A DNA stretch of 37,518 nt from an uncultured Gammaproteobacteria bacterium (GCA_964423565.1 CAYREZ010000001.1:976-38493); one strand, 5' to 3'; shown: positions 3,441 to 28,051, numbered from the stretch's first letter. A program made the numbers and translations. Notes: a model not told the origin generated them from the sequence alone.

Positions 3441-4613
3441 CTACTTTATATAAGTTGAAATAATAACATCCGCATTAACTTCAGAGTATTTCTTTTCTGC
3501 AAATTTTCTCGCATTATCTGACAATTTTTTTAGTTTATCAGGATTTTTATAAAAATACTCAGCCGACTCTTTAATCTTTTCTGGAGTCACGTCGATTAAC
3601 TTTCCCACGCTTTGGTCAATCGCCTCCGGAATTGCGCCTCTATTAGATCCGATTACCGGAGTACCACACGCCAAAGATTCCAAAATCACTCTTCCGAAAC
3701 CTTCCTCATGTACCGAAGGAACTATTAAAACATCCGCCGCATTATAGTACTTAGGCAACTCATCATTATCTATTTTTCCTAAGTATTGAACATTGGAAAT
3801 TGGAAATCCATCGACTTCGCTCGGGACGGTGAGTTTGTCGAACCGTTGGAAATTGGAAATTGTATTTTCCATCGGTCCTGTTCCAATTATCGTCAAAGTT
3901 ATGTTTTTATCCCAAATTTTAGCCACTTCCAAAAGTTCATTAATACCCTTTTCTAGCACTAACCTCCCCACAAATAAAACAATAAATTTATCTTCCCAGC
4001 CAATCTGTTTTTTAACTTGTCTCTTGTTACTTGTTGCCTTAAACTTATCTAGATCCACCCAATAAGTAAACTCTTGAATTTTAATGTTATCTATCCCCAG
4101 ACTTTTAATTTCTTCAGCTGATTGTTTGGATAATACCAAAATCTTATCAGACTTATTAAAAATCCATTTGGCAAAGATGTGATATAAACCTGCTTTTGGA
4201 AAATTATATATCGAGTGCGTCGTAGTTATAACTTTTTTAGAGAAAACTTTGCTCCAAAAAACCGCTGCAAATCCGGCAATAAGTCCATGACTGTGTATAA
4301 CAGAAATATTTTTTTCTTTAATCAATAAAACTGGTATAAACAGAAAAAGTCCCGGTATTAAGTACATAAATTCCAAAATAGGATTGTTAACAAGATTATA
4401 AAAAACGCCACCGAACCACGGAATTCTATAAATAGTCAAATTACCATTCTTTTCAATAAACGGTGCTGAAGCTTTTGTCGTGATAGGTTTATAAGTTAAT
4501 ACATCAACCTTCCAACCTTTTTTCAAAAGGACTTTTGTCAGATCATCAAAATGCGTTTCGATTCCGCCAATATTGGGCGAATAAGCAATAGTAGTAAGAA
4601 GTACTTCTTTCAT
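3441..4613 (-). CDS. GT4-family (GT-B fold) glycosyltransferase carrying a translated repeat element
   Basis: 390-aa ORF. C-terminal EEGFGRVILESLACGTPVIGS is the E-x7-E region of Glycos_transf_1. The linker ...ISNFQRFDKLTVPSEVDGFPISNVQYLG is encoded by the repeat at 3793-3860. Confidence 0.85.
   Translation of the reverse strand: MKEVLLTTIAYSPNIGGIETHFDDLTKVLLKKGWKVDVLTYKPITTKASAPFIEKNGNLTIYRIPWFGGVFYNLVNNPILEFMYLIPGLFLFIPVLLIKEKNISVIHSHGLIAGFAAVFWSKVFSKKVITTTHSIYNFPKAGLYHIFAKWIFNKSDKILVLSKQSAEEIKSLGIDNIKIQEFTYWVDLDKFKATSNKRQVKKQIGWEDKFIVLFVGRLVLEKGINELLEVAKIWDKNITLTIIGTGPMENTISNFQRFDKLTVPSEVDGFPISNVQYLGKIDNDELPKYYNAADVLIVPSVHEEGFGRVILESLACGTPVIGSNRGAIPEAIDQSVGKLIDVTPEKIKESAEYFYKNPDKLKKLSDNARKFAEKKYSEVNADVIISTYIK
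3793..3860 (+). repeat. Mini-element copy 1: 15-bp direct repeat, 38-nt core, 15-bp direct repeat
   Basis: TTGGAAATTGGAAAT (3793-3807), then CCATCGACTTCGCTCGGGACGGTGAGTTTGTCGAACCG, then TTGGAAATTGGAAAT (3846-3860). Its first 38 nt match the reverse complement of 20239-20276 at 36/38 positions. The overall architecture is shared with 20212-20276. Confidence 0.75.
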
Positions 4614-14138: not shown

Positions 14139-14180
14139 CAATCGTAATAATATCACTCAGATAAGAATATTTGAACCTTG

Positions 14181-14201
14181 CAAGGAGAATCCTTTAAAGG
14201 T
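14181..14201 (+). repeat. REP-like 21-mer, copy 1 (upstream of transposase gene)
   Basis: CAAGGAGAATCCTTTAAAGGT. It can fold as AAGGA-GAA-TCCTT, or through the perfect palindrome CCTTTAAAGG. It is preceded by a second palindrome, CCTTGCAAGG (14176-14185). Confidence 0.8.
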
Positions 14202-14211
14202 AACATAAGTC

Positions 14212-14895
14212 GTGCCTAGTAGAAATGTAATTAAAATTTACATAGAAAACGGTTACTACCATATTTATAATCGCGGAGTTGAGAAACGAATAATCTTTAA
14301 GGATACACAGGATTATAAAGTTTTTTTAACATACCTTAAGGAATACCTCTCACCACCACCTAAACCGGAACATATAAAAACTATATTCATCTTACAAGGA
14401 GAATCCTTTAAAGGTATTAAAAGACAGCCAAAGAACTACTATAAAGAAATCGAACTTATTTCCTATTGCCTGATGCCAAACCACTTCCATCTGTTAATAA
14501 AACAGGTTTCAAAATATTCTATAGAAAAATTTATAAGATCTTTAGCTACGCGCTATTCAGTATTTTTCAATAAGAAATACAACAGAGTTGGTAGTTTATT
14601 CCAAGGTCCATATAAAGCTGTATTAATTTCAAGTGAAAATTATTTGCTACACTTGAGCAGGTATATACATCTTAACCCTTCGGAATATACTGACGATCTA
14701 ATTAACTCATATTCGTCATATGCAGCTTATTTAGGATTACGTAGAACAAATTGGGTTAATTCCGATATTGTTCTAAATTACTTTAATAAACCTGTTGTAA
14801 AAGATTTTATAAAAGTAAATACTTATAAGCGTTTTGTAGAAAAATATAAAAAGGATTCTAGAAAACTTCTAGGGAAATTAACTCTCGAAAATTAA
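14212..14895 (+). CDS. IS200-like Y1 (HUH) transposase / REP-associated tyrosine transposase (RAYT)-like protein
   Basis: 227-aa ORF with a GTG start. Contains YHIYNRGVEKRIIF, the HUH motif YCLMPNHFHLLIK, GSLFQGPYKAVLI, and the catalytic-Tyr region LHLSRYIHLNP. Confidence 0.8.
   Translation: MPSRNVIKIYIENGYYHIYNRGVEKRIIFKDTQDYKVFLTYLKEYLSPPPKPEHIKTIFILQGESFKGIKRQPKNYYKEIELISYCLMPNHFHLLIKQVSKYSIEKFIRSLATRYSVFFNKKYNRVGSLFQGPYKAVLISSENYLLHLSRYIHLNPSEYTDDLINSYSSYAAYLGLRRTNWVNSDIVLNYFNKPVVKDFIKVNTYKRFVEKYKKDSRKLLGKLTLEN
14389..14425 (+). repeat. REP-like repeat, copy 2 (37-nt extended form, inside the transposase CDS)
   Basis: AACTATATTCATCTTACAAGGAGAATCCTTTAAAGGT matches 14894-14930 at 34/37 positions. 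It is translated as ...TIFILQGESFKG... Confidence 0.8.
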
Positions 14896-14930
14896 CTATA
14901 TTCACCTCTCAAGGAGAATCCTTTAAAGGT
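14894..14930 (+). repeat. REP-like repeat, copy 3 (37-nt extended form, downstream of transposase gene)
   Basis: AACTATATTCACCTCTCAAGGAGAATCCTTTAAAGGT. Its start overlaps the transposase stop codon (14893-14895). Its last base overlaps the stop codon of the convergent GT2 gene (14930-14932). Confidence 0.8.
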
Positions 14931-15850
14931 CAAGATTTAACACTTTGCCAATACTTAAAATAAGCAATCGGGTAACGTAATGCAGAAAAAACTGACCAGA
15001 TAAAGCCGCGCATACCGTCTAAGTATCCTTTATGCCTCAGGTAGAGTAATAGAAAGAGATAGAAAGGTTTAATAAATGAGAAATATAAAAGATGTATGAT
15101 GCTACGCTTGGACTTAAACTTAATCTTAAACTCTTTTGCCTGTAGGTCGGTATACCGATTCAGTCTCTCCAAGTACCGGCTAAATGTTGGGGATTCATGG
15201 TGTTCTAAGTCGTTAAAGAGCCATGCAACTTCCCCATCAACTTCCATTAGTTCATGAACCGACTTTGCCGGAAATTTTGCCTTACCGAACTTTACTAGTC
15301 TTATAACTCCGTCTGGATAAACTCCTGCGTGAACCAGTTGTTTACCTAAAAAAAAGTTTCTGCGTGGGATGAAAAATGCAACAATCTCGCCGCTTTCCGT
15401 TCCAATATGACCTTCCCGCTTTTCAATTAACTTTTGGTGCCTCAAAAAAAGTTCATATAACTCATTTTTTTCATTACACTTTCGTTCAAACTGATCACGG
15501 ACAATTTGATTGTTTTCAAATTTAACAACTTCTTTAATCTCTTCCCCCAACTTAGGTGTTACCCTCTCATCAGCATCTAATTGGAGTATCCAATTCCCGC
15601 TTGCCGCACTCAATGCCTTTTGTTTGGTAATATGGAATATTGGTTCGTGTTTTACAGTAAAAACTTTTGCTCCATACTTTTTGGCAATTTCAGGTGTTTT
15701 ATCGCTTGACTCCTCGTCAAAAATGATAATTTCATCTGCAATATATTTTATCGATTCAAGACATTCACCAATATTTTGCTCTTCGTTTCTTGTTGCTAAA
15801 ACAACCGAAAGTGTTTTATGAGATAAGGGTCGAAGATTATGTTTTTTCAT
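14930..15850 (-). CDS. GT2-family glycosyltransferase
   Basis: 306-aa ORF. Contains LSVVLATRNEEQNIGECLESIKYIADEIIIFDEESSDKTPEIAKKYGAKV and LQLDADE (DxD). Confidence 0.8.
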   Translation of the reverse strand: MKKHNLRPLSHKTLSVVLATRNEEQNIGECLESIKYIADEIIIFDEESSDKTPEIAKKYGAKVFTVKHEPIFHITKQKALSAASGNWILQLDADERVTPKLGEEIKEVVKFENNQIVRDQFERKCNEKNELYELFLRHQKLIEKREGHIGTESGEIVAFFIPRRNFFLGKQLVHAGVYPDGVIRLVKFGKAKFPAKSVHELMEVDGEVAWLFNDLEHHESPTFSRYLERLNRYTDLQAKEFKIKFKSKRSIIHLLYFSFIKPFYLFLLLYLRHKGYLDGMRGFIWSVFSALRYPIAYFKYWQSVKS

Positions 15851-17193: not shown

Positions 17194-18870
17194 TCAATTT
17201 GCTACGATCTGAAAATACTTATATCCATTTGTTCCATAAATTTCCTCGACAATATTTGACTCCTCCAATATTTCCTTATCAGTTCCTGCAAATAGCGCTC
17301 CCGGATATTTTACCCTATCTTCATCCCAATTAATCTTATTAAATTCAAACTTATCGAAATTTCTTACCGTTGAAAAATTATATGTATCCCGTTGTGTCAG
17401 CTCATGATTACCCTGAAACCTAGCCGGTGGATACTTAAGATAAAACAAAAATAATATATAAGGTTGATCATATCTATTACTAACGACTATTTTATTAAAT
17501 TTATCACCATTTTTCTCAACATAATCAACCAGCTCCTTTATCCCATATTGCGATGAGAAAGGATATTCTTTTGCCATATGAACCCAATACATATGCTCGT
17601 AGCGAGTGAAGTTCCAAATAACAAATAATCCAATAAACAAATAAACAAATGATTTGATGAATTTTGAAAATTGTTTGAACGCGTGTGAAGGAATTGATTA
17701 TATAGCAGATAAACCGGTGGCACTGATTATCGTAAGGGGGACTACCATATTTTGTGCACGGAGTGCATGCGGTGATTGAAAAGTAAGCGCCGCGCCTACG
17801 GGTGCGACAATCAACCACCATAAGATTAGAGTATAGGATTTAAAATACTGGGATAACGATTTAATTACAAAAATGATCCCACAGACAATAAATAGTATAT
17901 CAAATAAGTACATTTGCCCCGTTTCCGGCACTCGATTACGCTCTATGACATCTCCTGATAAAAAAAGAAATTCCCCGTTGTAATGCTTAACCCAGTTATT
18001 GGTAAAAGCCAAGCCATAATTTACCAATTTATTATGTATTGTTTTAGAAAATAAACCCTGAAAATTATTATGCTCACCCCTTTGTTCATTAGTCCTGGCG
18101 AGTGGCCCAGTATCTGCAAATAAGCCAACGCCTGCCATCCTCGATGTAATGTTTCCCTTTGTTAAATCTTTCGCCAACGGCATTAACGTAACCAATCCGA
18201 CTAGTGCCGCTAAAGCAAAATTTAGCAAATGTTTGCGAACATATTTAAAGTAAATAAGAAATAATCCGACTCCAATAAGGGGAGTAATTACGCGTGCAGA
18301 ATGATATGCGTATAAAGACAACGTAAAAACCAAAGAGCTTAAAAAAAGATATACTATATTGTTCAATCCTTTTAGGAAAAACCATAGACCTAATACGATA
18401 AAAAATGTCGCAACATTTACTTCCCATCCTCCACGCGAAAAATGTATATGCCAGGGGCTAATTGCAAGCAGAAAGCTTGCAATATGACCAGTGCCTAATT
18501 TCAAATCTCCAATTGCTAATTTCTTATTATCAAATAATTCGCCTACTAATAAATAAACCAGATAAATGGTTAAGAGCCCGAATAATGTCCCAGGAATTCT
18601 AACCGACCATGCATTTAACCCAATGAATTTTACAAAAGGTAAAACCATATAGAAATACAAACCAGGTTTATAATCGTTGAAAGATTGAAAGTGAATCGGC
18701 CAGGGATTACCATGCTCGTCTTTACCTGTTTCTAATAGTGAATAAGCGTTATAACCAATTGCAGCCTCGTCAGCATTTAAAGCAGGATAACTACCGAGTT
18801 TCCAGAACCTTAAAAATGCCGCCAATAAAATGATCAGTAGTAAAATATATTTATGATATTTATTTCCCAT
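17194..18870 (-). pseudogene. ArnT/PMT_2-like GT-C glycosyltransferase, paralogue A, interrupted by one in-frame TAA
   Basis: Track ORFs 17698..18870 (390 aa) and 17194..17640 (148 aa, TTG pseudo-start) are in the same frame. They are separated only by TAA (17700..17698) and 19 sense codons. The joined 558-codon frame aligns end to end with the intact paralogues (N-terminal DEAAIGYNAY, SPWHIHFSRG, C-terminal QPYILFLFYLKYPP). Confidence 0.65.
18461..18483. other. perfect 9-bp stem / 5-nt loop palindrome inside the paralogue A coding sequence
   Basis: Gene strand: ATTGCAAGC-TTTCT-GCTTGCAAT, encoding I-A-S-F-L-L-A-I. It is positionally homologous to the palindrome at 20189-20211. Confidence 0.8.
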
Positions 18871-20188
18871 GTTACATATAATGATATATCATACAGATGA
18901 CTATTTAATTTCTATAATACGAAAAGCAGTTTCACCATTCAAATATTTAATCTCATTTATTAAAGTGAATAATTTCGTATCGCTCGAATCTTGCGGCGGT
19001 ATTCGTACCGAATCGCCAATTATTAAAGATCCGCTATCACCGCGATTTAAAGACCAGTCTATGGGAACAAATTCAATATTATCAAGTTTATTGACATATC
19101 CAACATCGCCAATTAGACCGCTATCTACTAGCTTTGACTTTTTTTGATAAACGGCTGGCGGATATTTTTGGTAGAAAAGGAAATATATATAAGGTTGAGC
19201 AAATGATTGCTGGACTTTCACTGTAGTATAATTTTTTTGAATAGGAGTGACAATTTCGACCATCTGTTTATACCCATACTCCCAAAGTTTTGAGTTATGT
19301 TTCGAAAGATGAATAAAATAAGAATCGAGGTAATAGACAAGCGAACCAACAAACAAAATAGATATAAAACTAATAAACGAAAATTTCTTTAAGTTATTAC
19401 TTAAATTTTTATTAAACCCAAAAATATCAATAAGCCCAAAAGACGATAAAAATGTAAGGGGAATTACCATATTTAAAGACCTGATTGCATGTACTTGATC
19501 GCGGGATAATACTGCCGGAAGTGGTGCTAAAAGAAGCCATAACAAGATAAAATAAGTAAATTTATTCGACTTGCGGATGATAGAATTAAATCCGATAACA
19601 AGTAAAATTATATCTGATAGAAGTAGCATGCCATGATTAGGAGCAGAATGTCTTGGATTCTGCCAATCTCCTTCAAAGAACAAAAACCTACCCGAGAAGT
19701 GATTAAACCACCGACTCATTATTCCCCTTTTATAATTTAGGGGCTCGCTATGGAAAAGATAGTAATTTAAGCTACCAACTTTCTCATTCCCCTGATCTAA
19801 AAATGTCTGTAGGTATTCTTTAGTCCTAGGGTAGGAAAAAACATTGAAGACATTTAATCTTCCCGTTTGTCCAAAGTGAAAACTTATCAAAACTGGCAAA
19901 ACAATAATTAAACCTACTATCGTGGACTGTATCACAGTAACAAGGTTATTAGTAATAATTACTTTTGTTTCTCGCCAATAACCAACAATAAGGACAAAAA
20001 TAACAATTAATGTTGATAATTTAGCACCTTGGTAAGTAAGCACCGTCAGCGAAAAAAATACTGATGCAAGTATAAGGAATTTACTTTTATCCAACGCTTT
20101 GAGAAAAAAGTAAATTCCGAATAAAGTCAGAGTTAAAGCTAAATTAGCTTCCCAAGCTCCCCGGGAAAAATGGATATGCCCGGGATTA

Positions 20189-20211
20189 ATCGCGAGTAAT
20201 GAACTCGCGAT
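20189..20211. other. perfect 9-bp stem / 5-nt loop palindrome inside the paralogue B coding sequence
   Basis: Gene strand: ATCGCGAGT-TCATT-ACTCGCGAT, encoding I-A-S-S-L-L-A-I. It is unusually GC-rich for this sequence and directly abuts the repeat element at 20212-20276. Confidence 0.8.
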
Positions 20212-20276
20212 AATTTCCAATTTCAAACAGTCAGGCAAACCGACCCGAGCGAAGTCGAGGGATTTCCAATTTCCAA
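20212..20276 (-). repeat. Mini-element copy 2 (inverted relative to copy 1): direct repeat, 35-nt core, direct repeat
   Basis: Minus strand: TTGGAAATTGGAAAT, then CCCTCGACTTCGCTCGGGTCGGTTTGCCTGACTGT, then TTGAAATTGGAAATT. The core spans 20227-20261. It is 35 nt long, not a multiple of 3. Confidence 0.75.
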
Positions 20277-20632
20277 TATATTTTTTAATCTTATTTTTTT
20301 AACTATCAGATACATTAACCAGACAGCAATTACTCCCGCTATCGCACTAGGAAGTCTTACCGCAAATTCGGTTAATCCGAAGATTGCGATAAAAGGCACG
20401 GTGGTGTAAATATAAAAACCGGGTTTGTAATCCCCGAATGACTTAAAAATAACAGGTAGTAATTTACCGTACTCATCTCTTCCGGTTTTCAAAATAGAAT
20501 AGGCATTATATCCCAATGCCGCCTCATCCGGTGTTAAACTGGGCGGTAAACTCCCCAACTGCCATATTCTCAAAATTGCAGCTAATATAAGAATAGGAAA
20601 TATAGAATTATGAAATAAGAATTTTTTTATGT

Positions 20633-21277
20633 TCATACTTTAAACATAAACTTTTTTACAAATTTATTTACAGTCCCATGTTCGTCTCCAGTAACCACTG
20701 CGATTCCGCTTATTATCCCCTTGGCTATTGAAATTCCTTTTTGGTTATATTCCTTCTGAATTTTTTCTGCAGTTTTTTCATCCTTGAATCTAAGGAAGGT
20801 AAGATGTGGATGGTATTCAGTCATCACCTGAGGATAACCAAATGCTTTAATATATTCTCGTTGTCTGCCTGGGAATCTATTGGAATCTTTTAGTTCTATC
20901 CTATGTTTTTCACTGATATGACCTTCTCTTAAAGGATTAATAATTTTTAATACCTTTTTATGAATTGAATATAGCTGACTACCCTTCTTAAAATCTAATC
21001 CTACCCATCCCCGTTCTGAATAAAGTTTATTAAATTGTAATTCGAAAGGCGTTGTATTTTTTACAATACTTCTTAATAAACTGAAAAATTTCCTTTTATT
21101 TTTAGTAGGAAATTCGACTTTATAAATCGTGATATGAGCGAAATTTATTTTATTATCTATCTTAAAATAAATATCGCCTTTTGTAGAAACTTCATTTGCG
21201 AGCTGTTTAGCTAATTCAGATACCGATTTATTTGGTAATAAAATTATTCTGTAGGTAACAAACTTATCTTTTTTCAT
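20633..21277 (-). CDS. 2H-phosphoesterase superfamily protein (LigT / 2'-5' RNA ligase-like, cyclic phosphodiesterase-like)
   Basis: Two H-x-[TS]-x motifs are present: FAHITIYK and HPHLTFLRF. The ATG at 21277 (MKKDKFVTYRIILL...) is preferred over 21322. Overlaps with both flanking GT-C genes suggest translational coupling. Confidence 0.55.
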   Translation of the reverse strand: MKKDKFVTYRIILLPNKSVSELAKQLANEVSTKGDIYFKIDNKINFAHITIYKVEFPTKNKRKFFSLLRSIVKNTTPFELQFNKLYSERGWVGLDFKKGSQLYSIHKKVLKIINPLREGHISEKHRIELKDSNRFPGRQREYIKAFGYPQVMTEYHPHLTFLRFKDEKTAEKIQKEYNQKGISIAKGIISGIAVVTGDEHGTVNKFVKKFMFKV

Positions 21278-23003
21278 ATATTTCAAAGGCTGGTTTACCG
21301 TCCAGAAATTCAACATCTTCAAGTTTAGACCAACCGTTGGGCATATTTCCTGGGCTTGTTATTAATAAACACCTATTTTCACCAGCCAAACATTTAAACC
21401 TACTACCGTTCTCTAAAACAAAATCCTGCCATTCTTCTTCTGGGATATTCCAATCGTTAATAAAGTAAAATTTATCAAATCTATCTACCCAATACCAGTT
21501 TGATTGATTAAACCGAATTAGCGATGCATCTTTTTGGTATCTTGAAGGATTCCAAGGATAATTGACTAAAACGAAGATATGCGGTTCGCCGTACTTTTTT
21601 GTAAATATAATTCTGTCATAATCTTCATAATGCAGTTTCGCATAATCAACCGCCTGCTTATAGCCATACTGCCAACTCCATGAATAGTTTTTTCTATAGC
21701 TATTAAAATATTTTTTCCAATAATTTACCAAAGAAAAAGTTAAAACAGTTACATATATCAGTAAAAGAGCTAAAATCATAAACTTTCTTCTTCCGAGTTG
21801 TAACACTCGACTCAAACCCATTGCACTAATAACCATAGGCATGGGCAAAATAATTGATGCGCGAAGTACGTGTGGTGCTTCCCTAGTAAGAGAAGAGGGA
21901 ATAGTTGATAAAAAAAACCAAGATAAAATGAATACAGTTAGCCTATCTCTTCTTTTCAAGAGTGTGATAAAACCTAAAACCAAAAATGTCGCGTTAATTG
22001 TATATAGAACTCCAGCCCCCGGAACACTGAATTGATAATTTGATCCTCCTTCAAAAAATAAAAATTTAAAATTATAATGATCTAACCAATTACTGCCTAA
22101 GTGTCTTATAAAATAAGTGGGTCTGCTATAAACTAGCCTAGTTATTATATTAGGTAGCTGTGAATTTTGTCTGGATTCAATAATTTGTCCTACCGCCCCA
22201 CTATCAATTAGAGCAATCTTGGAGTATCTTGCTTGTCCAATAGGCTTAATTAGTTGATAAAACATCGGTATAAAAAATAGAAGAATAACGAACAAAGAAT
22301 AATAAAGTATGTGTTTTTGACTCCTATAAATTACTAGTATTTCTTTTCTATATAAAATTATTAGTACTACCATAAACAAAGGTATGAATATTCTCGCAGA
22401 ATTATAAGTCCAGACTGACAAACCTAATAATGTGGTGGATAGTAGCAAGTAACCAGCAACTTTTGGCTGCAAATGATTCGGAAAGTTAATAGATTGATTA
22501 ACAACTTTTAGAAAAAAATAAATTCCAGAAATAATGAATAATACGGCAAGATTTGCCTCGAATGCCGCACGGGATAAAAATAAACTCCAGGGCTCAACTG
22601 CGACAAGAAGTGCAGCCATTGTTGCAAGTAATTTTGGATCAGTTATTATTGGTTTGTTTTTACTACTGGGAAATAACTCAAGAACTAAAAGGTATGTAAA
22701 ATATCCTGATCCCACCCCTGCGAGTACGGAAGGTAGACGGACAGAAAATGTGTTTAATCCAAAAATTGCAATAGATACGACAGTAGTATAAATATAGACT
22801 GGCAATTTATAGTCACCAAAGGCTCTGAAAATACTCGGAAAAAGCCGATTCCATTCATCTCTGCCAGTTTTTAAAATTGAATACGCATTATAGCCGATAC
22901 TTGATTCGTCCCAGTTCAAAGACGGAGGATTACTGTCTACATAAATAATTCTTAAATATAATGCGATAGCTAGTATTAAAAATAGTACAATTTTATTTTT
23001 CAT
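21264..23003 (-). CDS. ArnT/PMT_2-like GT-C glycosyltransferase, paralogue C (intact)
   Basis: 579-aa polytopic protein. Contains N-terminal WDESSIGYNAYSILKTGRDEW, then EPWSLFLSRAAFEAN, and a C-terminal soluble domain (YGEPHIFVLVNYPWNP). Confidence 0.85.
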   Translation of the reverse strand: MKNKIVLFLILAIALYLRIIYVDSNPPSLNWDESSIGYNAYSILKTGRDEWNRLFPSIFRAFGDYKLPVYIYTTVVSIAIFGLNTFSVRLPSVLAGVGSGYFTYLLVLELFPSSKNKPIITDPKLLATMAALLVAVEPWSLFLSRAAFEANLAVLFIISGIYFFLKVVNQSINFPNHLQPKVAGYLLLSTTLLGLSVWTYNSARIFIPLFMVVLIILYRKEILVIYRSQKHILYYSLFVILLFFIPMFYQLIKPIGQARYSKIALIDSGAVGQIIESRQNSQLPNIITRLVYSRPTYFIRHLGSNWLDHYNFKFLFFEGGSNYQFSVPGAGVLYTINATFLVLGFITLLKRRDRLTVFILSWFFLSTIPSSLTREAPHVLRASIILPMPMVISAMGLSRVLQLGRRKFMILALLLIYVTVLTFSLVNYWKKYFNSYRKNYSWSWQYGYKQAVDYAKLHYEDYDRIIFTKKYGEPHIFVLVNYPWNPSRYQKDASLIRFNQSNWYWVDRFDKFYFINDWNIPEEEWQDFVLENGSRFKCLAGENRCLLITSPGNMPNGWSKLEDVEFLDGKPAFEIYEKR

Positions 23004-26353: not shown

Positions 26354-28051
26354 CTATTTAAGGGGGGTTTGTACAATATATATCGCAGGGTCACCATTTG
26401 GATAATAAATTACATGATCAGGTATTATATTCTTAAATTCTTCTGGTTTTCCTGCCATCACGATTCCTTCTTCTTTACCATATTTTAAAAGATCTATATC
26501 CCCGAAAACATAATTTTCGAGTTCCCATTTCGGCATTTGGTCGACCCATCCCAAACCAAGCTTTCGATAATTCCACTCCTTTGCATACTTTTGATAACTT
26601 GAGGGTTCCATACGGTTTGCAAAAGCTATAAAAATATTCGGTTCAGAAAGAGTTCTGCTCACAATAATTTGCTTACTTTGCGCATTCGTATTTAGCCACT
26701 GAGCGGCCTTTAAGCTCCCATAAAGCATATCTTTAGAAGATTTTTGAGGGGAAACCAAAAAATAATCTAATAGAAAATATATAAAAATTAAAGTAGATGC
26801 AAATATGTAGGAAACATATACTAACTTCTTATATTTAAAGTCTGCAATATAGTTAACAACTTGAAGCAAACCGAATGCAAGCAAAATTTGGATTGATGGC
26901 AGTTGAATTACTGCCCTATTAGCCGCATAACCCGGACCGAGTGATAAAGCGGCAGGAATTGGCGCAATAAAAAACCAAAATAATATTAACTTAAAAAGTT
27001 TATTAACTCGAGCTTTTGTAATAAATAGAAAAAACCCTAGCAACAGTGGCAGTTCGAACCAATACAAAACTCCCCTACCCGGAATCATGCCGTAGGTAGC
27101 TTCAGCAGGACCCTGAAAAAAATAGTACTGGGGTGAAAAGTAGGATACATAGTTGGCAGTAAAATGCCTTAAACCCATGACAAACTTATTAAAAAATAAC
27201 CTTCCGGTGAAAGGATCCATACCCATATTAATGGCTTTTATTCGCTCAGAGGATGCCTCCATAAGTGAAAGCTTGAATATGCTTACATCCAAAATGCGGG
27301 TTGATGATCCGGACATAAGAGTCCAAAAAAATGCAGCTGCAAAAATTAATGCAATAAATATACTGATCTTATGATATTTCCCGAAATTTCTAAAAACCTC
27401 TTTCCTGAAAATTACCAGCGCAAAAATAAAAACAAGCGGAGTAATTAATTTAGCGGAATGGTAGCTGAAAATGTTTAATCCCGCTAAAATTACCGAGTAC
27501 GTAAAATATTTTGGGTTATTTAACCCCTTAAGAAACAGATAAATTGCTAGTGGAAGAAAAAACGTTGTTAGGTTTGCCTCAAACGCTCCCCTGCTCATCA
27601 TTATGTGCCAGGGTGAAATCGCAAGTAGAAATGCTGCGACATATTCTATATTTCCAATTCCAATATTCTTTAATGCTTTTGAAGGTGTCTCACTTAACCC
27701 GAGATATTTCCCGTAGGATTTAGAAACTAATCGGGTTAACAGAAAAGTCACGTAAATCGCAAGAGTTCCCGACAGTGCGTTTGGTAGCCTGGTCGCGACT
27801 TTATTAAGTCCCAATAATCCAATAGATGGAATAGTAAGATACGCATATAACGGAGATTTGAAATCTCCTGCAGACTCTAGCGTCAAAGGAAAACTTTTTC
27901 CCCATTGATCTTTGCCTGTTTTTAAAAGTGAATAGGCATCATATCCGAACGAAGACTCGTCCGGTGTAAATCCGACAGGATACTTATCAAGAGATGTTAC
28001 ACGTAGAAGCAGTCCCAGTAATAAAATAACCGCAAGTAAATAGCGTTTCAT
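26354..28051 (-). CDS. ArnT/PMT_2-like GT-C glycosyltransferase, paralogue D (intact)
   Basis: 565 aa. Contains TPDESSFGYDAYSLLKTGKDQWG and SPWHIMMSRGAFEAN. The variable loop is ...KYLGLSETPSKALKNIGIGNIEY... Confidence 0.85.
   Translation of the reverse strand: MKRYLLAVILLLGLLLRVTSLDKYPVGFTPDESSFGYDAYSLLKTGKDQWGKSFPLTLESAGDFKSPLYAYLTIPSIGLLGLNKVATRLPNALSGTLAIYVTFLLTRLVSKSYGKYLGLSETPSKALKNIGIGNIEYVAAFLLAISPWHIMMSRGAFEANLTTFFLPLAIYLFLKGLNNPKYFTYSVILAGLNIFSYHSAKLITPLVFIFALVIFRKEVFRNFGKYHKISIFIALIFAAAFFWTLMSGSSTRILDVSIFKLSLMEASSERIKAINMGMDPFTGRLFFNKFVMGLRHFTANYVSYFSPQYYFFQGPAEATYGMIPGRGVLYWFELPLLLGFFLFITKARVNKLFKLILFWFFIAPIPAALSLGPGYAANRAVIQLPSIQILLAFGLLQVVNYIADFKYKKLVYVSYIFASTLIFIYFLLDYFLVSPQKSSKDMLYGSLKAAQWLNTNAQSKQIIVSRTLSEPNIFIAFANRMEPSSYQKYAKEWNYRKLGLGWVDQMPKWELENYVFGDIDLLKYGKEEGIVMAGKPEEFKNIIPDHVIYYPNGDPAIYIVQTPLK

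Follow-up and report, generated by a model that had tools for sequence, protein, structure and literature searches.

Results

The window, that is the whole stretch of 37,518 nt analysed here, has a GC content of about 34% and contains almost exclusively minus-strand genes of glycosylation, encoding GT2, GT4 and GT10 glycosyltransferases, a flippase, and many GT-C/PMT_2 and PTPS-related membrane proteins. The stretch derives from Rifle groundwater and is recorded as contig LBTI01000001.1 of GCA_000991215.1 and as ENA scaffold_868. The closest named homologues belong to Candidatus Woesebacteria. One of the GT-C genes, paralogue B, is broken into two minus-strand ORFs which overlap at a short GC-rich core: an N-terminal fragment of 137 aa (20223..20636) and a C-terminal fragment (18901..20238; 445 aa as an ORF, 441-445 aa as a feature). 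The former ends in ...LEIGNPSTSLGSVCLTV*, with a TGA right after the core, and the latter continues in the -1 frame relative to it; both overlapping ORFs had been described in the original prediction and were found again. A gene for a 2',5' RNA ligase / LigT-like phosphoesterase (20633..21322, minus strand) is located between GT-C paralogues, a placement that is kept at the orthologous loci L127 and L145.

The N-terminal fragment of B matched the Pfam families PF02366 with 29.7 bits (cut-off 22.7) and PF13231 with 27.6 bits (cut-off 26.1), and both domains are present in its homologues. Closest to the repaired B protein is P0001, which has 579 aa and shares 96% identity with it. An AlphaFold model of P0001 reached a pTM of 0.85, and its best Foldseek matches were STT3, AglB, ArnT (5f15, 5ezm; TM about 0.5), ALG9, PglB and Pmt4. 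Residues D37 and E38, invariant in 21 aligned sequences, represent the acidic D-E motif of the first extracytoplasmic loop. By domain content and modelled fold, the host gene is a predicted GT-C glycosyltransferase of the GT39/PMT_2 (ArnT-like) type. The earlier label "ArnT-like" applies at the level of fold and family. Residues 120-139 of P0001, which are encoded by the element described below, form the sole segment of the model with a pLDDT below 50 and sit between helices 90-122 and 139-150, so that the element in B is modelled as a disordered loop between two helices. The alignment of paralogues and orthologues bore out the earlier remark that variability is highest in this loop.

A repeated mini-element in paralogue B and in a GT4 gene

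On the minus strand, positions 20277 to 20212 read ATTGGAAATTGGAAAT-CCCTCGACTTCGCTCGGGTCGGTTTGCCTGACTGT-TTGAAATTGGAAATT, and re-reading of the window thereby reproduced the filled-site sequence reported previously for paralogue B. The GC-rich core of 35 nt (20227-20261) lies between heptamer repeats of the TTGGAAA type. Its left half-module (20262..20277; ATTGGAAATTGGAAAT) comprises 2.3 units, is read as LEIGN, and flanks the core at at least seven unrelated loci; the right half-module (20212..20226; TTGAAATTGGAAATT) is read as LKLEI in the downstream frame. The core itself is a remnant, namely a 39-nt core minus 4 nt, with an intact left half (CCCTCGACTTCGCTCGGG), a decayed right half, and the hairpin gone. 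Removing the 35 nt in silico resulted in a single ORF of 566 aa. In the window, the 22-nt core pattern was found twice with up to 3 mismatches, against 0.00 matches expected, and the heptamer doublet six times against 0.56 expected; chance is therefore no explanation for these repeats.

An inverted second copy had been part of the original prediction, and a matching unit is indeed present on the plus strand at 3792-3862. Between the two copies, the inverted-repeat arms reach a complementarity of 95% over 39 nt and of 79% over 34 nt. This copy 1 consists of a left heptamer half-module (3792..3807; ATTGGAAATTGGAAAT), a core which has kept its hairpin (3808..3845; CCATCGACTTCGCTCGGGACGGTGAGTTTGTCGAACCG), and a right heptamer half-module (3846..3862), all given for the plus strand. 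It is located in frame in an intact GT4 glycosyltransferase gene (3441..4613, minus strand), which reads the core in antisense as RFDKLTVPSEVDG and which, at one linker, is longer by exactly these 13 aa than at least 40 orthologues. The segment in paralogue B is thus supported as a discrete, repeated mini-element.

The GT4 linker is a hotspot among orthologues (L150:501-1673, L151:501-1649, L152:501-1685). Their base linker is constant at 16 aa, to which is added a perfect (AAAAATC)4 run in one orthologue, a (TCAACCA) run plus a related core of 30 nt in another, and a different GC hairpin of 39 nt in yet another. Furthermore, an antisense ORF of 90 aa (3793..4065, plus strand) starts in copy 1 (MEIGNPSTSLGTVSLSNRWKLEI...). 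It most likely is a by-product of the element's open frames and not a gene.

Anatomy and further copies of the element

The full unit measures about 70 nt (ATTGGAAATTGGAAAT + CCCTCGACTTCGCTCGGGATGGTGAGCTTGTCGAACC + ATTGGAAATTGGAAATT). Tandem heptamers, about four in number and (TTGGAAA)n in the window lineage, make up its outer part, and its inner part is a GC-rich imperfect palindrome of 37-38 nt with the left half CCCTCGACTTCGCTCGGGAYGG and the right half TGAGCTTGTCGAACC. The core occupies the exact centre of the module, where it separates heptamer unit 2 from unit 3, and together with a junction repeat of 1-2 nt adds 39 nt. The GGAAATT-type repeats previously noted on both sides of the core are present, but they are the two halves of this four-heptamer module and not target duplications. 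The hairpin with the stems TCGAC/GTCGA and GCTC/GAGC has a DNA minimum free energy of -5.7 kcal/mol (z-score -0.6), and neither DNA nor RNA folding of the two copies gave a significant structure. Stop codons are absent from five of the six frames of the full unit; among 20000 shuffles, 0.18% reached five or more.

A scan of metagenomes detected flanks plus core at at least seven unrelated loci. Intact ORFs for LeuRS, ArgRS, a DUF3105 protein, RecF and MnmA host the full unit, in both orientations and several frames, on contigs of low to moderate GC from other groundwater metagenomes. A partial copy, composed of the left half without right half and right flank, is found in an intact NDP-sugar dehydratase ORF on a contig of 54% GC. 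At least eight copies are located inside ORFs, the in-frame hosts being GT-C, GT4, LeuRS, ArgRS, RecF, MnmA, DUF3105 and the dehydratase.

Coreless runs of four units, namely (TTTGGAA)4, (CCAATCA)4 and (AAAAATC)4, were observed among the orthologues at the B loop and the GT4 linker, and in other orthologues the heptamer runs at these sites enclose different GC-rich cores, 30 or 39 nt long; linker length minus cores is constant. In other Woesebacteria the B loop contains (CCAATCA)4 and (TTTGGAA)4 (L145:2501-4213, L149:1501-3297), and the identity of the heptamer at one and the same B-loop site varies by lineage. Searches with Rfam 15 gave no match at the gathering threshold in the window and only tRNAs at E<=0.1 in nine loci.

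Filled and empty sites

In two orthologues of B, both from other organisms, the length between two TGGAAAT units differs by exactly 39 nt. P0013 (L147) reads GGA AAT CCCTCGACTTCGCTCGGGATGGTGAGCAGGTCGAACCAT TGG AAA TTG GAA ATT, and at the same place P0015 (L148) reads GGA AAT TGG AAA TTG GAA ATT with an uninterrupted heptamer run. A junction repeat of only 1-2 nt (AT or T) is readable at this pair. A comparison of B orthologues, as proposed along with the original prediction, thus yielded a filled and an empty allele with the 39 nt in frame.

The proposal of filled and empty sites holds for this pair but not for paralogue A, which had been taken for the empty site. At the homologous loop (18484..18530, minus strand), paralogue A (17698..18870) has the run ATTGGAGATTTGAAATTAGG and is read as ATTGGAGAT|TTGAAATTAGG with ATT GGA GAT TTG AAA TTA GGC, which agrees with the coreless sequence described earlier. 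Judged by this sequence, it is a degenerate paralogous heptamer run without core and not a true empty allele. In addition, paralogue A is broken into the ORFs 17698..18870 and 17194..17640. The break coincides with an N-gap of ENA scaffold_868, and at this place (17640-17700) the window differs from the related locus L143 by +11/-17 nt; it probably represents a gap-closure artefact and not a real frameshift. The ORF 26354..28051, paralogue D of the original prediction, bears a coreless heptamer-like run in the same loop (27643..27667, minus strand; ATTGGAATTGGAAAT), and the repeat-bearing loop claimed for it was thus found.

Over the 23 codons of the element, B (L127) and P0013 share 83% identity, and 87% at third positions, compared to 62% and 40%, respectively, in the rest of the gene. 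These values suggest that the element is either young or constrained. P0001 and P0013 both carry the core, and the closest relatives of each are without it. Since the identities of P0001 and P0013 are star-like, they are compatible with one shared old insertion as well as with independent gains.

The sister strain and a probable loss of 4 nt

DNA encoding P0001 derives from two samples, L127 (ENA ERZ27254767) and L143 (JGI Ga0154975), which are identical to the window by 98.8% over 7.9 kb and by 98.5% over 14.5 kb, respectively. In both, the core has 39 nt (13 codons), the ORF of 579 aa is intact, and the protein reads ...LEIGN PSTSLGKVGLPDC LKLEI.... The sole indel in the B gene between the window and these two sequences comprises 4 nt, CTCGG[GAAG]GTCGG, at a GG microhomology; the deletion point (20243..20246, minus strand) is ambiguous within the C/G run.

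The element is in frame in the orthologue P0013 as well. The loss of 4 nt within an in-frame unit of 39 nt makes the frameshift in B secondary to the insertion. The idea that an out-of-frame insertion of 35 nt had split the gene has consequently to be given up, because the unit is 39 nt long and in frame in P0001 and P0013. Alleles of related strains, which had been recommended for comparison, did reveal an intact gene, with 39 nt and not 0 nt at this place. The scenario named beforehand as speaking against an insertion, an in-frame segment that merely lost bases, was correct as to the loss, which amounts to 4 nt, but the segment is an insertion and not an ancestral loop. From these comparisons, the split of B would be a secondary 4-nt deletion or an assembly error.

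Between the strains, dN/dS of B was 0.28 (12 substitutions), similar to that of the neighbouring genes (0.04-0.56), and hence there is no sign of long-term decay, with substitutions between window and sister strain too few for relaxed selection to be detected. Support for the 35-nt allele comes from a single read set, since the window shares its assembly lineage with ENA scaffold_868. This scaffold has its N-gap at about 17700, 2.5 kb from the B core, which indicates that the local assembly is imperfect.

Distribution of the left half

More than 120 species genomes, as a lower bound, contain the left 22 nt of the core (CCNTCGACTTCGCTCGGGNCGG); they come from many phyla and groups, including Acidobacteriota, Sphingomonadaceae, Planctomycetota, Omnitrophota, Patescibacteria, Chloroflexota, Verrucomicrobiota and others. 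Among the 118 usable matches listed, 19 also have the right half, and 13 have an inverted partner upstream in the manner of a REPIN doublet; such inverted doublets of the left half are present in Sphingomonadaceae. Flanks with a period of 7 were seen at 7 of the 118 listed matches, compared to 1 of 600 control positions, and their units are lineage-specific (GGTTCCC, CGAACTA, CCGAACT). The left half was found in one viral contig and in no plasmid, which provides no evidence for carriage by phages or plasmids.

Head-to-tail arrays of the 22-nt left half, with a period of 24 nt, are seen in some Acidobacteria and in one Sphingomicrobium (L055:182-251, L079:1532-1649, L016:5285-5354). At five other loci (L042, L060, L073, L074, L078) the left half is the loop of perfect GC stems that are followed by T-runs. 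These loci belong to Doudnabacteria, Peribacteria and Saccharibacteria and look like intrinsic terminators.

A RAYT-like gene in the window

The plus-strand ORF 14212..14895 (region 14163-14938) encodes a Y1/HUH transposase (PF01797, E 9e-12). Its best NCBIfam match was the REP-associated tyrosine transposase, below the cut-off. Amid minus-strand genes it is the largest of two plus-strand ORFs with a Pfam match. The flanks of this RAYT-like ORF feature a different repeat than the core of the mini-element, namely the exact 21-nt motif CAAGGAGAATCCTTTAAAGGT, which is present around and in the ORF in three direct copies (14181, 14395, 14910). This motif contains two overlapping palindromes, and one of its copies is an in-frame part of the ORF. 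When all fetched loci were searched by tblastn for the RAYT-like protein, such a gene was detected within 8 kb at one of about 150 loci, and thus no linkage to a transposase is apparent.

Discussion

We favour the reading, with a probability of roughly 0.78, that the element in paralogue B is an old and decayed copy of a very small nested repeat and that the frame of the gene was split by a later loss of 4 nt. The core in B is an insertion and not an ancestral loop, a rival which is largely refuted by these comparisons. That the segment simply is an old loop of this protein family, its likeness to copy 1 being secondary, draws on the heptamer-like sequences in several paralogues and orthologues, and the heptamer run may indeed be old at this site. 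Such an origin is very improbable in view of the exact 39-nt pair of filled and empty sites, the occurrence of the 70-nt unit in unrelated genes, the identity at third positions (87% in the element against 40% in the rest of the gene), and the lack of the core in the closest relatives of both carriers. Of more weight, if still unlikely, is that the 4-nt gap is an error of assembly or consensus. In this case B would be intact in the window strain too, with the element in frame and nothing split. The exact 137-aa fragment is recorded on one contig only, and this contig and the window come from a single sample. A core of 39 nt is seen in two further samples, an N-gap interrupts this scaffold at about 17700, a place at which the window departs from L143, and the core, as a multi-copy repeat, invites consensus errors. 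On the other hand, these other samples represent a different strain, 1.2-1.5% divergent, and say nothing direct about the allele of the window; a deletion of four bases is atypical for an Illumina consensus error, and its position at a GG microhomology is as in genuine slippage deletions.

The core might instead be a functional nucleic-acid signal, such as a terminator, a protein-binding site or a small RNA, and not selfish DNA. The identity of the 22-nt left half across phyla and the terminator-like stems with T-runs in several Patescibacteria fit such a role, which we nevertheless regard as quite improbable because Rfam gave no match, the folding energy is not significant, the B copy lost the right half and yet stayed in frame, and copies occur in both orientations and several frames inside ORFs. 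A programmed recoding similar to T4 gene 60 or the yeast mitochondrial byp elements, with ribosomes hopping or shifting over the core and B still being made in the window strain, would be suggested by the codons TTG GAA ATT of frame 0 (20276-20268), which recur in the downstream frame (20220-20212), by the GC-rich insert within an AT-rich gene, and by the otherwise undamaged ORF halves. Elsewhere, however, the element is in frame and stop-free, as predicted by translation and not by bypass. Moreover, no stop directly follows a take-off codon, the B copy has no stable hairpin, and the core does not end in a slippery heptamer that would allow a -1 shift, which leaves this explanation a highly improbable one. 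Still less credit is given to the two inverted copies as recombination sites which invert the 16.4-kb segment and swap gene ends like a shufflon. The inverted orientation of the copies and their identity of about 95% over 39 nt speak for it, as does the 90-aa antisense ORF that starts in copy 1, but neither an invertase nor an integrase was detected in the window, and the unit is single in many other genomes. This inversion switch was rejected because independent assemblies are collinear over copy 1 (L123) and over copy 2 (L127 and L143). Reading of TGA as glycine (code 25) was also rejected, given the long table-11 ORFs in the window and a TAG that, by eye, soon follows the TGA.

Returning to the inserted and later damaged repeat, the following course of events is conceivable. 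A four-heptamer module would have been there first, and the core would have been placed in its centre, between units 2 and 3. Together with the junction repeat of 1-2 nt the core would amount to 13 codons, thereby keeping the frame of the host, and the unit, being stop-free in five of six frames, would be translated as extra loop residues. Whole codons and few stops may explain why genes tolerate the element inside ORFs. In the B gene of the window, 4 nt would then have been lost within the core at the GG microhomology, shifting the frame, and one of several GT-C paralogues would recently have become a pseudogene or a split gene. As essential genes stay open across it, the insert is presumably translated as a disordered loop.

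Filled and empty sites and the young sequence suggest that the element is, or was, mobile. Our best guess for its mover is a trans-acting enzyme of the HUH/Y1 type (RAYT-like), which would act on single-stranded hairpin DNA and place a copy of the core centrally in pre-existing four-heptamer modules. Almost as likely is copying by short homology, in which gene conversion or template switching would make use of the identical heptamer arms. More tentatively, and with less than even odds in our estimation, core and four-heptamer module may constitute an undescribed two-tier mobile system that crosses phyla. In such a system the 37-38-nt hairpin would home to the module centre, add 13 codons and write new surface loops into proteins, in CPR bacteria also into RecF and aminoacyl-tRNA synthetases. 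Its mechanism would differ both from classical transposition and from REP/RAYT in the present understanding.

Small dispersed repeats (SDR) with cores of 21-27 nt were reportedly described in cyanobacteria, in a 2008 study of Nostocaceae by Elhai and co-workers. They are said to be often nested in tandem heptameric repeats, to be present or absent at homologous sites, and to have no recognised transposition mechanism. Our element resembles them as a short dispersed core nested in tandem heptamers which is present or absent at orthologous sites (P0013 vs P0015, 39 nt). It differs in having a core of 37-39 nt, in its in-frame location in ORFs of CPR/Patescibacteria, and in a left half that is found across phyla, and the comparison with SDR is one of description and not of sequence. 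We file the element as a variant of this kind of repeat.

Bypass elements, known from T4 gene 60 and as byps from mitochondria of Magnusiomyces, are short GC-rich stretches of 27-55 nt which interrupt AT-rich coding sequence between matching codons. They are skipped in translation, and the frame need not be kept. A short GC-rich insert in an AT-rich gene between matching codons is found here too; in contrast, all copies other than that in B of the window keep the frame, and do so in stop-free frames. Unlike in MITEs, there are no terminal inverted repeats, the ends being direct heptamer repeats and the inverted symmetry lying inside the core.

Full-text searches of the literature gave no relevant paper on the element peptides (FDKLRANG etc.) or the DNA motif, and searches on CPR, heptanucleotide and palindrome repeats gave only one paper on Geobacter besides reviews. 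The Gmet_H4## elements of Geobacter metallireducens described there are present in 49 dispersed copies of exactly four tandem heptamers within and between genes, have the unit GGGACCG, and are read as regulatory elements (PMC2700814). The four heptamers correspond to the outer module of our element (2+2 units) and to the coreless runs in orthologues, but there is no central core in the 39 of the 49 aligned copies that were compared.

Rickettsia palindromic elements (RPE) are palindromic selfish repeats located in frame in unrelated genes (Ogata et al. 2000, via PMC10969869). They share with the present element the in-frame insertion into unrelated protein-coding genes, where it is carried as an extra peptide. 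RPE are about 100-150 bp long, lack heptamer arms and are restricted to Rickettsia (PMC10969869), whereas the unit described here is about 70 nt long with a core of 39 nt, and its hosts are not Rickettsia. REP elements and REPINs are moved by RAYT (Y1 HUH) transposases, and REPs are extragenic and adjoin the RAYT gene (PMC3116915). A short GC-rich imperfect palindrome (TCGAC/GTCGA and GCTC/GAGC stems), the inverted doublets of the left half and a RAYT-like gene in the window are reminiscent of these systems. The copies found here differ in being intragenic, and there is no cognate RAYT gene flanked by the core.

For the B locus, these results mean that inactivation, or misassembly, would be due to a loss of 4 nt inside a tolerated in-frame repeat and not to an insertion. 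Elements of this kind can give rise to false frameshift and pseudogene calls as well as to assembly breaks. The exact pairs of filled and empty sites make the chemistry of insertion open to a direct test. Across phyla, the 22-nt left half shows an unusual degree of conservation, which may point to frequent transfer or to recognition by a conserved factor. Finally, streamlined CPR genomes would harbour a tiny selfish element inside essential genes, tolerated by way of whole codons and stop avoidance, and this element may serve as a source of loop insertions in proteins.
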